Origin: a virus
Taxonomy: Duplodnaviria; Heunggongvirae; Uroviricota; Caudoviricetes
Direction: 5' to 3' (one strand)
IMG/VR virus record: IMGVR_UViG_2547132281_000008
Coordinates: 1 to 39,533 of that record
DNA: 39,533 nt
This document shows, in pieces, positions 12,001-18,000 of the stretch (within the stretch, counting starts at the first letter, position 1; each line of letters starts with the position of its first letter). The position numbers were made by a program.

Positions 12001-15000
12001 AATCACGCATCCGCACTTCGGTGATAAACCGGTAAAGGTGTTCGCGATAAAGGTGAATATCAATGGCTAAATCAGCAGCAGAGCGCAAAGCCGCTCAGAG
12101 AGCCAGACAAGCTGCATCCGGTGTACGTAAGCTGGAGATTGTGCTTGATGCTCAGGAAATTGAAATGCTGGAGCGTAACTGTGCCACTCGTCGCCCCGGG
12201 CGTGCACCTTACGAATTTGGTGAGTATATCGCGTTACTGATCCGCCAGGATGATGTACGCGTGCGCGGGCGTATAAAATCGATCAGCAGAAAACGTTGCG
12301 GTAAGTGCGGCGAGAGAGTTCCTGTGAATTCATGCCCGTGTAATGGTGACTCGCAATGCTGGGTGACTAAAGGCTGGCATGAAACGAAATTAATAGTGTG
12401 ACATGTCACGAAGGTGTTATGCCAAAAATACGCTACGACCTTGAAGATATGAGAGATAACTCAGCAAATTTTCCGAAAGAGGTTAAATTTCTCATGCATA
12501 AGTATGGTTGCGCCAGGAGGGATATAGTTATCGACAGTCACCACCCTTGCGGCGAGGATGTAATTTTCATTCGCGGTAAATGGGAAGGGTATCTTGACGA
12601 GAGTTTTTACGATGAATTTGATGGACTTTGAATACTGCCGCCAACTATGGCGGCTTTATTTTGCATGGTACTATTACCATAACGGTAACAATTACCAGGG
12701 TGGTTATTATGCCTGCTGAACCTAAAACCTATAAACGCAAATCAACGCAATTTAAGCCGCTCACAGCAATGCAGGAGGCTTATTGCCAGTCATACATCAA
12801 AACGCCTGAAAACCAGACTCAGGCAGCGATTAACGCAGGATTCTCCCCAAATACAGCGGCAGTTAAAGCCAGCGTCATGATGCGCGATGAACGCATTCAA
12901 AAACGGATTGCCGAGTTGATGGAAGAGCGCAACAAACGAATGCGCGTCAGTGCTGATTACGTTCTCATGCGCCTGGTGGAGATCGACCAGATGGACGTGA
13001 TTGATATCCTCAACGACGATGGGAGTCTTAAGCCAATCCGTGAGTGGCCGAAAATATGGCGCACTACGCTTAGCGGCTTTGATCTGTCATCGACCATCAT
13101 GAACATGAACGAGGACTCGATAGAGACAATCCTCCAAAAAATTAAATGGCCTGACAAGGTGAAGAACCTAGAACTGATTGGTAAGCACGTCGACGTCAAC
13201 GCATTTAAAGAACGCCTGGATGTTAATGTGAATGTGACAATTGCTGATCGCATAGCGGCAGCCAGGAAGCGACTCAAAGAACGTCAGGATGGTAATCAGT
13301 GACAGATACAGCGTTATCTCCTGAAGAGCAGTTGATCGAGGATATTGCAGGGTTCACTCACGATCCGCTTGGCTATGCCCTCTATGCGTTCCCGTGGGGG
13401 GAAGAGGGGACTGAACTGGCACATGCTACCGGCCCACGTCAGTGGCAGGCCGATGCGTTCCGAGAGATACGTGACCACCTGCAGAATCCAGAGACGCGCT
13501 ATCAGCCGCTTATGCTGGCACGTGCTTCGGGTCACGGTATTGGTAAATCCGCATTCATCTCAATGCTGATCAACTGGGGCATGTCCACTTGCGAGGATTG
13601 TAAGGTCGTGGTAACCGCCAACACCGACAACCAGCTACGAACGAAGACCTGGCCGGAAATTATCAAGTGGTCGAACCTTGCTATCACGAAAGACTGGTTT
13701 ACCTGTACCGCTACCGCGATGTATAGCAATGATCCTGGACACGACAAGCGGTGGCGAGCTGACGCAATCCCCTGGTCTGAGCACAACACTGAGGCATTCG
13801 CCGGACTACACAACGAGCGCAAACGCATCATCGTGGTATTCGATGAAGCGTCGAACATTGCGGATCTGGTGTGGGAAGTTGCCGAGGGTGCGCTTACGGA
13901 CGAAGACACTGAGATTATTTGGGTGGCGTTCGGAAACCCGACGCGTAATACCGGACGTTTCCGCGAATGTTTCCGCAAATATAAACACCGCTGGAAAACT
14001 GCGCAGATTGACAGCCGGACGGTGGAAGGCACTAACAAACAGCAGTTGCAGAAATGGGTTGATGACTACGGGGAAGACAGCGACTTCGTTAAAATCCGTG
14101 TGCGCGGCATATTCCCGGATGCATCTGAATTGCAGTTTATCCCTACCGGACTTACTGACGAGGCAATGAAACGGGTGGTCACCGCTGCGCAGGTTGCACA
14201 TGCTCCGGTGATAATCGGCGTTGACCCGGCATACTCAGGCGTTGATGACGCGGTGATATACCTGCGGCAGGGGCTGCACAGTAAGGTGCTATGGACTGGT
14301 AACAAGACCACCGACGATCTGATTATGGCGAAGCGTATCGCTGACTTTGAAGACCAGTACCAGGCTGACGCGGTGTTCATCGACTTCGGTTACGGAACCG
14401 GTCTGAAGTCAATCGGTGACGGATGGGGTCGTACATGGCAACTTGTTCCGTTCGGTGGCGCGTCTACTGACCCGCAGATGCTCAACAAGCGTGGGGAGAT
14501 GTTCAATTCATGCAAGACATGGCTGAGGCTGGGCGGCATACTGGATGACCAGGAAACAGCAGACGACCTGTCGGCGGCAGAGTACAAAGTTCGTGTGGAC
14601 GGTAAAATCGTTATCGAACCGAAGGAAGATATCAAAGAGCGTCTTGGGCGTTCGCCGGGTAAAGGCGATGCGCTACTGCTGACGTTTGCGTTCCCTGTGT
14701 CGAAGCGTCTGCGAATTCCTGGGCAGCAGAACCAGCAAGGCAAGGCCATCACAGATTATGACCCGTATGCTTAATCCGCTGGTGGGGATAATGTCGTTGA
14801 TATCCTCTGATGAGGATAAAACAAAGCCAGCTCATCGGCTGGCTGTTTGTGACATGTCACGGTGTTATTGCTCGCTTAGCTTCTGCTTCAGCAAGTAACC
14901 TTCGAGCATCCAGATTTTGTTTACAGCATTCTGCCGGGCAATCTTCCGACCAATTTCTGCATCAAAGTTTTCCGGGCTTGCACAGGCGCTCTCTCCGGTG

Positions 15001-18000
15001 ACGGTGAAGCCGTTGCGCAGCACCAGGACGCAGAAAGTCAGGAGGTCTGTAGATTTATGCGCTGTCCATGAATCGCCAACGCCCATATTGGCAGCACGAA
15101 TGCCGTCATAAGCAGTAAAGAAATGCTCTTCAAGAATGATGCTTTCGATATATTGAGGCGTAACTCGCGGAGCGGTTTTGCCTTTCTCAACGATTTCTTT
15201 TTCGATTTGCTGGTCGTTCATAATCTCACCTTAAAAAAATGCCCGGCGAACCGGGCGAACTGGAAGCAATGAGTTATGCCTTCCGTGGCTGTACGGGTTT
15301 ACAGCATGAAGTCATCGCAATGGCGTCCTGCTGTAAAAAGGGCGGTGATAGTCCTTCAAGGGAAACCATCACCGCCAAGCCCCTGGAACTTCTGGCATCA
15401 CGGTCCTTAGGCGTGATTCTGGCGTGGCATGCAGGATTCGAACCTGCGACCAACCGCTTAGAAGGCGGTTGCTCTGTCCAGCTGAGCTAATGCCACAACG
15501 CTGAGAGCACTTAGCCTGTTAAGGCGCCACACTTTGTCGCGGCTCCATAAATGCTCTCATCGTTGTACCCTCGTCTCTTCCGAGGCGTCACACCGAATCG
15601 CCGGGATGGTGAATCCCCGTGCGCGGAATAAAACCGCTCGACTTGCACATTCCGGCTACCTGGTTCGTTTGCCCGAGCAAGGGAGGGTGCCCCTTAAACG
15701 TATCCAGACCGCTATCGGCGCATGTGCCATACGCCGTACTGCTCAAAATAAAAGCTCACTCCACCTGTTCAATTTAACGACAAGCCAGTCAGGTTAATAA
15801 CTGGAATGAACCATTTGCTTACCCAAAAGGTAATAATTCGTGCGTTAAATGTCAACTATCTACGATAAATAAATCATATGTGGTTAAATTGGTAATAATT
15901 TAATTGCGTACGGAGTCATTGATATGTGCATGGGTAGCTCACCATCAGTGCCTGCAACACCAGAAGTTCAGGCAGCACCACAGGAGCAGGATGCTGCCGT
16001 TGTTGATGCCCGCGACGAAGAAACACGTCGCCGTCGCGCTGCTGCTGGTCGTAGTTCTACGCTGCTTACCGGTTCTCAGGGCGACACATCAACCGCTAAT
16101 ACCAGCGGTAAAACGCTGCTTGGTCAGTAACCGGAGTCATTGAAATGGCGGAAACAACTAAAGAGCGATTGAACAAACAGTTCGCACAACTTGAAAGCGA
16201 GCGTCAGTCGTTCGAGCCGCACTGGCGCGAGTTGAGTGATTACATCAACCCGCGTGGTTCCCGCTTTCTGACTTCTGAGGTCAACCGTAACGATCGACGC
16301 AATACACGCATTATTGATTCGACCGGGACTATGGCGGCGCGCACTCTCGCCAGCGGCATGATGTCAGGCATCACAAGCCCTGCGCGTCCGTGGTTTCGCC
16401 TGGCTACGCCAGATCCTGAAATGATGGATTATGGCCCTGTTAAGTTGTGGCTTGAGGCGGTGCAGAACCGCATGAACGATATGTTCAATAAGTCGAATCT
16501 CTATCAGTCGCTGCCGCAGTTATACGGAAGCCTCGGCACATACAGCACTGGTGCAATGGCAGTGCTGGAGGATGACGAGGACATCATTCGCACAATGCCA
16601 TTCCCGATAGGCAGTTACTACCTGGCTAACTCACCTCGTGGCAGTGTGGACACCTGTTTTCGCAAGTTCTCTATGACTGTTCGTCAGCTTGTTCAGGAGT
16701 TCGGGCTAAATAACGTCAGCGAATCCGTAAAAAGCATGTGGGAAAGCGGCACCTACGAGAAGTGGATTGAAGTGATGCATTCGGTTTACCCGAACATTGA
16801 CCGCGATACATCGAAGCTGGATAGCAAGAACAAGCCATTCAAATCGGTTTATTACGAGGTTGGCGGCGATAACGACAAGTTGTTGCGTGAGTCCGGATTC
16901 GATGAGTTTCCAATTATGGCTCCGCGCTGGGAAGTTAACGGCGAAGATGTTTATGGATCATCATGCCCGGGTATGCTGGCGCTTGGACCTGTTAAGGCAT
17001 TGCAGCTTCTCCAGAAGCGCAAGTCGCAGTTGATTGATAAAGCCACCAATCCGCCGATGGTTGCTCCGACTTCCCTCAAGAATCAGCGCGCCTCCCTTCT
17101 TCCTGGCGACATCACGTATATCGATCAGATTACTGGTCAGGATGGCTTCAGGCCTGCTTATCTGGTTAACCCCAGTACAGCAGATTTGGTGGCAGACATT
17201 CAGGACACTCGTCAAATCATTAACAGCGCCTACTTTGTCGATCTGTTCATGATGTTGCAGAACATCAATACCCGCTCTATGCCTGTTGAAGCGGTGATCG
17301 AAATGAAAGAAGAAAAACTTCTGATGTTGGGGCCGGTTCTGGAGCGTCTGAACGACGAATGTCTTAATCCTCTCATTGACCGCGCTTTCTCGATGATGGT
17401 GCGTAAAAACATGCTGCCGCCACCGCCTGACGCGATGGAAGGCATGCCCCTGAAGGTCGAATACATTTCCGTCATGGCTCAGGCGCAGAAGTCTATCGGC
17501 CTGTCCAGTCTGGCGTCCACGGTTAACTTCATTGGTCAACTTGCGCAAGCGAAACCAGAAGCTCTCGACAAACTCAACGTTGATCAGGCGATCGATGCAT
17601 TCGCTGATATGTCTGGAGTGTCTCCAACCGTCATTGTTCCGCAGGAACAGGTTGAGCAGGCTCGCCAGCAACGGGCACAGCAGCAACAGCAGCAACAAAT
17701 GATGGCGATGGGGATGGCGGCGGCACAGGGTGCCAAGACGCTAAGCGAAGCTAAAACTTCGGATCCGAGTGTTTTGTCAGCTATGGCGAATGCAGTTAGT
17801 GGTCAGGGTGGGCAATCACAATGACAGATTACGAAGACGATCAACTGAAAGAAGAAAACGCCCGTAAGCAACGTGACATGGCGCAGCGTGAAATTGATGA
17901 CATTCGCTTTGTCATGAGCAGTGAACAGGGGCGTCGCGTTGTCTGGTCTGTGCTGGAGAAAGGCCGGGTGTTTTCCGCTATCTCTCCGATGGATGCTATG

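Follow-up and report, generated by a model that had tools for sequence, protein, structure and literature searches.

In the RNA-based antitermination system of phage HK022, the structured, cis-encoded RNAs putL and putR (two copies, each about 70 nt long with two stems) lie 3′ of a repressor-controlled early promoter and 5′ of intrinsic terminators. No N-like gene is present at that position, and their distance to the terminators is tolerated. In phage lambda, nutL/N occupies the PL leader and follows a logic of promoter-specific read-through, whilst morons and anti-defence slots are autonomous promoter–gene–terminator units at module junctions, where unrelated genes are swapped at one site. 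Features of these systems recur in a minus-strand transcription unit that separates the terminase gene terL from the virion genes of the phage genome described here (IMG/VR record IMGVR_UViG_2547132281_000008, analysed over its whole 39,533 nt and hereafter called the window). By sequence, the window is the genome of a phiV10/epsilon15-type podovirus of the genus Uetakevirus, and the region under study is 97.9% identical to phiV10 and 98% identical to the Phi05 fragment.

The unit is read here, with a probability of roughly 0.6, as a repressor-controlled early unit in which a leader RNA, an RNA slot, and two terminators, T1 and T2, precede a swappable counter-defence gene that is reached by read-through in cis. 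From 5′ to 3′ on the minus strand, it comprises a predicted, operator-covered promoter, the leader of about 240 nt, the RNA slot (holding a tRNA-Arg(UCU) gene in the window), T1, and T2, followed by a ribosome-binding site (RBS) with the cargo gene and, finally, a palindrome and a terminator shared with terL. Such a unit would be silent in the lysogen and fire at once upon infection or induction, supplying both a counter-defence protein and a tRNA that decodes AGA, a codon heavily used by the phage. The leader would act in cis on the transcribing polymerase, or recruit a factor to it, and thereby give read-through of T1 and T2 into the cargo.

The terL–gp3 interval was taken from 13 Uetakevirus genomes: the window and 12 relatives from Escherichia coli (phiV10, ZX5, HEMP4, TL-2011b, and EC.W1-9), Salmonella (epsilon15 and SPN9TCW), Klebsiella (Kp4865-1, ST512-KPC3phi13.3, BUCT711, and ST11-OXA245phi3.2), and Enterobacter (Tyrion). 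All 13 carry a minus-strand unit of 0.9–1.9 kb at this site, and prophages from other genera have such a unit there too. The first-pass annotation of the window had described an island of about 1.3 kb inserted into a contiguous packaging–virion block. Its opposite-strand nature holds, but the minus-strand material spans only about 1.0 kb (approximately 14865–15855). The remainder (15924–16130) is a plus-strand gene outside the unit, namely the 68-residue gp3 homologue (phrog_831, function unknown) that opens the virion operon. Insertion does not hold: since all 13 Uetakeviruses examined carry the unit at one site, it is, from this comparison, a genus-wide, self-contained accessory transcription unit, ancestral to the genus rather than a recent insertion. 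The same annotation had proposed that an island shared by all related phages would speak against its view, and here the outcome is divided, because the island is present in every relative whereas its contents differ.

That view—a recently acquired moron island between the packaging and virion genes, with the tRNA and Gp49-like gene expressed from the prophage to the benefit of the lysogen—is therefore an improbable one. It would account for the opposite orientation, the unit's own terminators, its mosaic content, and the presence of tRNA copies of at least 95% identity in around 500 E. coli records, presumably prophages. It sits poorly, however, with the constancy of the site within and beyond the genus and with a base composition that offers no atypical GC content as a mark of recent import (48.5% in the cargo gene and 48.4% in the genome). 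Nor does it agree with a conserved upstream promoter lying under a repressor operator, or with cargo families of known function that are counter-defence proteins needed in lytic infection.

The promoter is predicted from the sequence TTGAC(A/C)-17-TACCTT, which is present on the minus strand in all 13 genomes with identical architecture and is the sole conserved promoter-like feature upstream of the tRNA. In the window it occupies 15819–15855, with a −35 element TTGACA at 15855–15850, a 17-nt spacer, and a −10 element TACCTT at 15832–15827. A motif scan places an operator, TTACCN5GGTAA, at 15819–15833, and in all 13 genomes this operator spans the −10 element and the predicted start. The composite promoter element noted earlier contains a copy of the operator. 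Where 0.5 sites would be expected in the window, the motif has 13 (6071–7244, 9176–9252, 12674–12706, 15819, 32731, and 36326), several of them within 6071–7244 around the repressor gene, an open reading frame (ORF) at 6205–6789 that matches transcriptional regulator and repressor PHROGs. In the GenBank record of epsilon15, the site equivalent to 15819–15833, upstream of gp3, is annotated as repressor-binding.

An operator lying over the only conserved promoter predicts that the minus-strand unit is repressed in the lysogen and expressed immediately and early upon infection or induction; we infer this timing from the arrangement of the sites. Expression of the tRNA from the lysogen, as had been proposed, is accordingly unlikely. 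A second, better-looking promoter candidate, TTGAAC-16-TATTTT (15772–15745) at the 5′ edge of the leader, was rejected, being specific to the window; other Uetakeviruses have GCGCTTCCAGGTGTG in its place.

Single operator sites also lie upstream of terS (12628–13302, plus strand), gp3, and the plus-strand ORFs beginning at 32850 and 36437. Because terS and gp3 each have such a site, terS–terL (terL, 13299–14774, plus strand) and gp3–portal (portal gene, 16145–17824, plus strand; Pfam Head-tail_con, E=1.6e-187) would appear to be separately controlled units, a further point against a contiguous block that was interrupted. The four sites together suggest that the repressor acts directly on several plus-strand late units, and not via a late activator.

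The cargo gene of the window (14865–15221, minus strand) encodes a protein of 118 residues that matches Pfam PF13876, Phage_gp49_66 (Gp49/Sf6 gp66), with E=1.3e-34 and 119 bits against a curated cut-off of 27. Searching its sequence against the PDB returns a single match, 9e4w (E=0.004), which is Acb4, or anti-CBASS 4, of Bacillus phage SPO1. In the fold of the Acb4 protomer, N- and C-terminal helices lie to either side of a three-stranded antiparallel sheet. An AlphaFold2 model of the cargo protein, built from 39 homologues with a pLDDT score of 83.4, agrees with this topology, having strands at residues 29–36, 61–68, and 73–79 in addition to helices. Foldseek comparison of the model with the PDB places chains of 9e4w at ranks 1–13 (probability 1.00; target-normalised template-modelling (TM) scores of 0.63–0.72), and the next matches have E>0.1, leaving 9e4w as the only significant fold match. 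Among the ligand contacts of SPO1 Acb4, the aromatic and hydrophobic residues F48, F62, and I66 are retained as F72, F86, and I90, and the backbone contact N63 is replaced by D87.

The paper on Acb4 assigns it to PF13876, counts 1,331 homologues, and reports that 3′3′-cGAMP was bound by each of the eight that were assayed (PMC11722364). Membership of the cargo protein in the Acb4 family, as a homologue of this anti-CBASS cyclic-dinucleotide sponge, is thus well supported by sequence and model. It differs from SPO1 Acb4 in being only approximately 20%–24% identical, and in having an N-terminal extension, a hypervariable middle segment, and three changed ligand-contact positions. The Acb4-like proteins of Uetakeviruses are near-identical in their N- and C-terminal parts, and it is the middle (residues ~38–60) that is replaced or resized, as in IRAANMGVGDSWTAHKSTD of the window, VFGVAIKAKHTGGEVNYQPHESLS of phiV10, and AIATGDDYHDSLA of ZX5. 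This variability could reflect ligand specificity or escape from defences that sense the sponge.

Across the Uetakeviruses, at least eight unrelated cargo genes lie between identical flanks. PF13876 cargo is carried by the window, phiV10, ZX5, epsilon15, and Kp4865-1, whilst the cargo of the Klebsiella phage ST512-KPC3phi13.3 has a Tad2-like (Thoeris anti-defence 2) domain (Pfam PF11195, E=4e-26). That of Tyrion contains DUF551 and others, and the remaining relatives carry several families of unknown function. With an Acb4-family gene here and a Tad2-like gene taking its place in a relative, the site is best read as a cargo slot for counter-defence genes. A PADLOC search with ten cargo proteins gave no meaningful match, only coiled-coil noise.

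The flanks around the differing cargoes are identical base for base, and the edges of exchange are sharp: T2 and the RBS (..GGGCATTTTTTTAAGGTGA..ATG) on the 5′ side and, on the 3′ side, the palindrome GTGACATGTCAC with the terL terminator. T2 is an intrinsic terminator at 15233–15256 on the minus strand (hairpin 15256–15241, GCCCGGTTCGCCGGGC + AT7). Its U-tract, AUUUUUUU, passes straight into the cargo RBS, AAGGUGAG, so that T2 forms the conserved 5′ boundary of the cassette and T2 together with the RBS (..GCCCGGTTCGCCGGGCATTTTTTTAAGGTGAnnnnATG) is kept right up to the start codon. At the other edge, the stop codon lies only a few bases from GTGACATGTCAC, a perfect 12-bp palindrome (14849–14860, 4 nt past the stop codon in the window), and from the terL-proximal hairpin. 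The palindrome is kept at this place in phiV10, ZX5, HEMP4, epsilon15, Kp4865-1, and SPN9TCW despite different adjacent cargo. These comparisons show that cargo and tRNA have been swapped as cassettes between fixed flanks.

The terL-proximal hairpin (AGCCAGC-TCATCG-GCTGGCT, 14825–14844) follows the terL stop codon, and equivalent hairpins are found 3′ of terL in relatives. It had been called a bidirectional terminator. It is terminator-like on the minus strand, where it would end the cargo transcript, whereas its plus-strand T-tract, GTTTGTG, is weak, and the terminator scan flags the minus strand only. Much else in the first-pass annotation was borne out, including the Gp49-like gene and the tRNA-Arg(UCU) on the minus strand (PF13876, ARAGORN, and Rfam matches), the intrinsic terminator, the palindrome, and a hairpin with a 9-bp stem, which proves to be a helix of the leader. 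An accessory unit on the opposite strand, equipped with a promoter region and terminators of its own, is likewise supported, and its content is mosaic with sharp exchange boundaries.

The leader lies at 15497–15739 on the minus strand (240 nt; 58% GC). BLAST finds homologues with 70%–83% nucleotide identity in unrelated phages: many lambdoid phages, namely cdtI, mEp460, Ayreon, 2H10, and Stx2c- and Stx2a-converting phages; P1, P7, D6, SJ46, and RCS47; Klebsiella phage SopranoGao; and a phage deposited as infecting Stenotrophomonas. Matches are present in 1,839 of 5,426 complete E. coli genomes (34%), on chromosomes as well as P1-like plasmids, and of the 40 such records listed, 39 have no annotated feature beneath the match. 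With a pattern scan, a further 24 loci were recovered in other species of Enterobacterales, along with 120 or more contigs of IMG/VR; these sequences comprise 82 variants.

RNAalifold, applied to 37 sequences, folds the leader core (15549–15739) into helices P1 to P4. Helix P1 is the 9-bp hairpin with a 3-nt loop (15716–15736), of which three pairs show compensatory changes; P2 is a long-range helix around a variable hairpin; P3 has a conserved UUCACCA loop; and P4 is a hairpin with a GAAGAGA loop. A closing helix of 19 bp, P5 (15548–15566 paired with 15495–15513), encloses a variable insert and ends exactly at the 5′ end of the tRNA. When 83 variants are aligned to a covariance model, 98.2% of 2,295 cells hold standard pairs, compared with 89.8% when columns are shuffled and 30%–44% when one strand is slid, and compensatory double changes occur at 12 of the 28 pairs (181 cells), in agreement with a MAFFT alignment. 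The model, designated R1, scores the window leader at 169.5 bits. The leader is thus a covarying RNA structure common to Uetakeviruses, to lambdoid leaders just 3′ of cI, and to the ban leader of phage P1.

That the element acts as DNA—as a recombination, replication, or protein-binding site, with the covariation reflecting DNA hairpins—is very unlikely. It does sit at the module junctions of mosaic phage genomes, and the edges of homology are sharp. Many of its conserved G·U pairs, however, fit only the minus strand of the window and would be A·C mismatches on the other, and in Uetakeviruses, lambdoid phages, and P1 it always points the way that local transcription runs. A small protein gene was likewise rejected. 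The invariant ATGTGCAAG opens ORFs that differ in length and frame among phages, so no frame is conserved, and the window and SPN9TCW read the same bases in different frames.

Rfam 15 contains no family that matches the leader at E≤10 over 606 nt, nor at E≤0.5 in seven homologous loci; at permissive thresholds, everything other than the tRNA was a chance match, and a RyhB-like match at 15233–15287 (E=1.1, 18 bits) is explained by a terminator and a hairpin arm. No earlier description of the leader was found in the literature searched, which did not include subscription-only papers such as those on the P1, epsilon15, and phiV10 genomes. The Gp49-like gene and the tRNA were already annotated or published, and the function of the Acb4 family has been in the literature since late 2024. 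The modular architecture, its reading as a repressor-controlled early unit and, most of all, the leader RNA, widespread yet unannotated, appear to be new. The leader would stand at the head of repressor-controlled early transcripts of P1, lambdoid phages, and podoviruses, and it is missing from both Rfam and RefSeq annotation.

By context, about 33 of the 82 variants occupy the Uetakevirus position, about 36 lie near a repressor gene, four are of the P1 type, and the rest are unclassified. A tRNA-Arg gene lies just downstream in 11 of the Uetakevirus-type variants. In the repressor-type variants, the leader follows a cI or helix-turn-helix (HTH) repressor gene by about 100–200 nt on the same strand. 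In the P1-type variants, it is located 73 nt upstream of the helicase gene ban, after trnI, within the C1-controlled ban operon.

The lambdoid arrangement is clearest in cdtI, the one phage in which PL was mapped; the other lambdoid contexts were placed by their position just downstream of cI. In cdtI, the cI stop codon and cI terminator are followed by a near-consensus PL (TTGACA-16-CATAAT), which has a palindromic operator across its −10 element, and the leader begins about 44 nt past the predicted start. The leader is succeeded by a domain of about 110 nt closed by GTGGT..ACCAC and by a hairpin (GGCGGTACCAG..CTGGTACCGC with TCTTTTTACA), beyond which lies the first ORF; the same strand holds no ORF of 60 or more residues from PL to T1. 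This hairpin is homologous to T1 of the window, the two having stems that covary (GGCGGTGATGG..CTATCACCGCC + CTTTTTACA in the window) and the same T-tract. T1-like terminators stand 3′ of the leader in most of the Uetakevirus contexts and in at least 16 of the 30 that are of the repressor type. By these alignments, each part of the window's minus-strand unit has its homologue in the PL leader of a lambdoid group. The first ORFs examined downstream of the leader and T1 match only PHROG families of unknown function.

In the window, T1 is a terminator-like hairpin at 15341–15376 on the minus strand (GGCGGUGAUGG..CUAUCACCGCC + CUUUUUACA), and a conserved trailer hairpin with 18-nt arms (15298–15337, minus strand), also present in epsilon15 and the Klebsiella relatives, lies between it and T2. 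With a conserved terminator between the early promoter and the genes, and a structured RNA as the only conserved thing before that terminator, the leader may function in cis as an antitermination leader that gives read-through; by analogy with HK022 (put) and lambda (nut/N), where such a layout signifies promoter-specific antitermination, this is a tentative interpretation, given somewhat less than even odds. Between the leader and T1/T2 lies the 77-nt tRNA, a tRNA-like domain of 130–145 nt, or, in BUCT711, an ORF of 81 codons. An insert this variable speaks against a riboswitch mechanism, in which aptamer and terminator would overlap, and favours action at a distance. A bolder version holds that the leader represents a new class of phage RNA, acting by read-through/antitermination or by binding polymerase, either independently of factors or with a host factor, and launching repressor-controlled early accessory and counter-defence genes in P1, a large group of N-less lambdoid phages, and Uetakeviruses; we consider this possible but somewhat unlikely.

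A number of observations weigh against the overall reading of a repressor-controlled early unit with read-through into counter-defence cargo. The predicted −10 element, TACCTT, is a weak match, and the promoter, its start site, termination at T1 and T2, and read-through are all predictions from sequence. Each phage carries a single copy of the leader, unlike the pairing of putL and putR; in the window, a search with R1 found no second copy. No terminator was detected between the leader and ban in P1. Epsilon15 has lost the leader core, yet keeps T2 and an intact Acb4-like gene, and the leader is therefore not strictly required for expression of that cargo. An antiterminated transcript would also run antisense into terL unless the 14825–14844 hairpin resists it. 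In EC.W1-9 and BUCT711 (loci L007 and L010), an operator-like site lies 3′ of T2, before a membrane/coiled-coil cargo gene (TTACCTTGAAGGTAA in EC.W1-9; CTACCATAACGGTAT in BUCT711, with one mismatch to the motif), so that some cargoes may bring a repressor-controlled promoter of their own. Finally, three ligand contacts of SPO1 Acb4 are changed in the cargo protein (E49 to T73, Y57 to A81, and T70 to I94).

The main rival to read-through is a stand-alone, trans-acting non-coding RNA (ncRNA), ended by T1 and freed from the tRNA by RNase P, that would bind a conserved host or defence component as decoy, sponge, or regulator, with read-through into the cargo being incidental. This is unlikely, if less so than the other alternatives. 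The unpaired blocks GGUAGCCGGAAUGUGCAAG and GGCGAUWCGGUGUGAC are invariant in P1, lambdoid, and podovirus contexts alike, suggesting one shared and probably host-encoded partner; the leader and T1 recur as a unit, the end of P5 coincides with the RNase P site of the tRNA, the leader adjoins counter-defence genes, and in some phages an RprA-like segment follows it on the 3′ side. In cdtI-type phages, however, the leader stands between PL and all of the leftward early genes, so a read-through mechanism would be needed in any case. In P1, moreover, it is fused directly to the 5′ untranslated region (UTR) of ban without a terminator, and no target or partner can be named.

A weaker rival makes the leader a processing or stability element, guiding maturation of the adjacent tRNA or tRNA-like RNA by RNase P, E, or III, or shielding the 5′ end of the early transcript. 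The leader does adjoin a tRNA or tRNA-like domain in Uetakeviruses and the GTGGT..ACCAC-closed domain in cdtI, and it follows trnI in P1; helix P1 is a stable, 5′-proximal hairpin, and the 19-bp P5 could be an RNase III substrate. A recognisable adjacent tRNA is nevertheless confined to the 11 Uetakevirus-type variants mentioned above and essentially absent from the repressor-type variants. Host tRNA genes need no 240-nt leader of this kind, and the sequence is more invariant than a generic stabiliser would need to be. Such a role is improbable, marginally more so than the moron island.

Returning to read-through in cis, the position of the leader parallels that of put, downstream of an early promoter and upstream of terminators, both at PL of cdtI and at the predicted promoter and T1/T2 of the window. 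The leader differs from put in its length (about 190–240 nt), its five or more helices, and its single copy. Membership in the put family was rejected, there being neither sequence nor covariance-model similarity: a search of the HK022 PL and PR regions with R1 gave no match, and by inspection putL and putR share few short words with the leader. With nutL/N it would share, by analogy, a PL-leader position and the logic of promoter-specific read-through. No boxA (CGCTCTTA or TGCTCTTTAACAA, allowing up to one mismatch) and no ops element was found on the minus strand of 15230–15830, and with no boxA- or boxB-like sequence, membership of the lambda nut family was rejected also. As with anti-defence slots and morons, the predicted elements form an autonomous promoter–gene–terminator unit at a module junction; unlike classic, prophage-expressed morons, the unit appears to be repressor-controlled and to carry counter-defence cargo, which predicts expression in the lytic phase.

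Were the overall reading correct, the "hypothetical protein plus tRNA" of phiV10/epsilon15-type phages would become a counter-defence expression cassette, and new anti-defence genes could be sought in the cargo slot. Six or more of its cargo families have no known function. Should the leader control read-through, it would be, with HK022 put, the second antitermination system based on RNA, and by far the more widespread of the two.

The tRNA-Arg gene (15420–15496, minus strand; anticodon TCT; CCA encoded) is accepted by both tRNA predictors applied, ARAGORN and Rfam (RF00005; 71.7 bits against a gathering score of 29, E=5e-15), and is already annotated in several GenBank records. It is present in nine of the 13 Uetakeviruses; epsilon15, Kp4865-1, ST11-OXA245phi3.2, and Tyrion lack it and keep the same flanks around the slot. 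The best chromosomal tRNA-Arg of typical E. coli strains is only 84.5% identical over 71 nt. On this evidence, a copy of a host gene was rejected, and the tRNA is apparently one of a phage lineage rather than a recent copy. A role as attachment site was rejected too, since the ZX5 paper, which mentions the tRNA, assigns attB to the 3′ end of guaA and puts attP next to the integrase gene.

In non-overlapping ORFs of the phage, AGA accounts for 7.2 per 1,000 codons and 11.8% of Arg codons, with AGG at 4.6 per 1,000. E. coli uses AGA at about 2 per 1,000, making the phage roughly threefold enriched. AGA is concentrated in the tail, injection, and tailspike genes and one replication gene (10 of 24 Arg codons in the tailspike, 32850–35147), and does not occur in the portal and capsid genes. 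The tRNA would ordinarily be explained by codon supplementation; replacement of copies cleaved by a host defence is possible. As with trnA, trnT, and trnI of P1, a single tRNA here serves a codon used above the E. coli norm from an early or accessory region, and in P1 a tRNA and the same leader occur together in the repressor-controlled ban operon. Unlike the P1 tRNAs, that of the window lies in a replaceable slot, held in relatives by the tRNA-like domain of 130–145 nt.

This slot lies between ..CGTTG and AATCACGCC.. and, where the tRNA is absent, holds a domain of 112–144 nt with a tRNA-acceptor-like closing helix, GTGGTG../..CACCAC (L029, ~7183–7313, minus; L011, ~3100–3245, minus; L014, ~2385–2496, minus). 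In the Klebsiella-derived loci L029 and L011, the domain includes a T-arm-like hairpin, the loop of which is a canonical TTCGACT in L029. ARAGORN calls no tRNA in the domain, and Rfam gives no match to it.

Several further features of the window and its relatives were noted. A plus-strand ORF of 83 codons (15239–15490) is given as a CDS in the annotations of phiV10 (PhiV10p04), ZX5, TL-2011b, and EC.W1-9; it runs over both the tRNA gene and the conserved trailer hairpins, and is probably a spurious annotation. The palindrome GTGACATGTCAC has three exact copies in the window (12398–12409, 14849–14860, and 32361–32372), each where two operons meet (preceding terS, following terL, and preceding the 32850 ORF) and kept there in relatives; prophage loci such as L029, L030, and L043 have two copies apiece. 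Being too short to form a stable hairpin, it is probably a protein-binding site. The third junction (32203–32850) has the same layout as the terL–gp3 site, with the palindrome at 32361, a minus-strand ORF, an operator at 32731, and the plus-strand 32850 ORF, and may be a second accessory slot. Its minus-strand ORF (32397–32720, 107 residues) belongs to phrog_450 (function unknown) and is weakly similar to an anti-repressor PHROG.

Among the other leader-bearing sequences, the IMG/VR contig L061 has two divergent copies about 800 nt apart on its minus strand (3979–4155 and 4786–4960; 115.9 and 160 bits), whilst every other source among the 82 searched has one match. An RprA-like sequence directly follows the leader in the repressor-type contexts L017 (2355–2474, minus) and L038 (~4540–4610, plus), sharing ..TTGCTGTGTGTAGTCTTG and a terminator; it scores 50.2 bits against Rfam RprA, below the gathering score of 70, and may be a phage-borne, RprA-like small RNA (sRNA). 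In cdtI (L014, 4776–4964, plus), matches to isrK (60 bits) and C4 antisense RNA (68.4 bits), both known families and both above their Rfam thresholds, indicate a P1/P7-type immI RNA module in this lambdoid genome.

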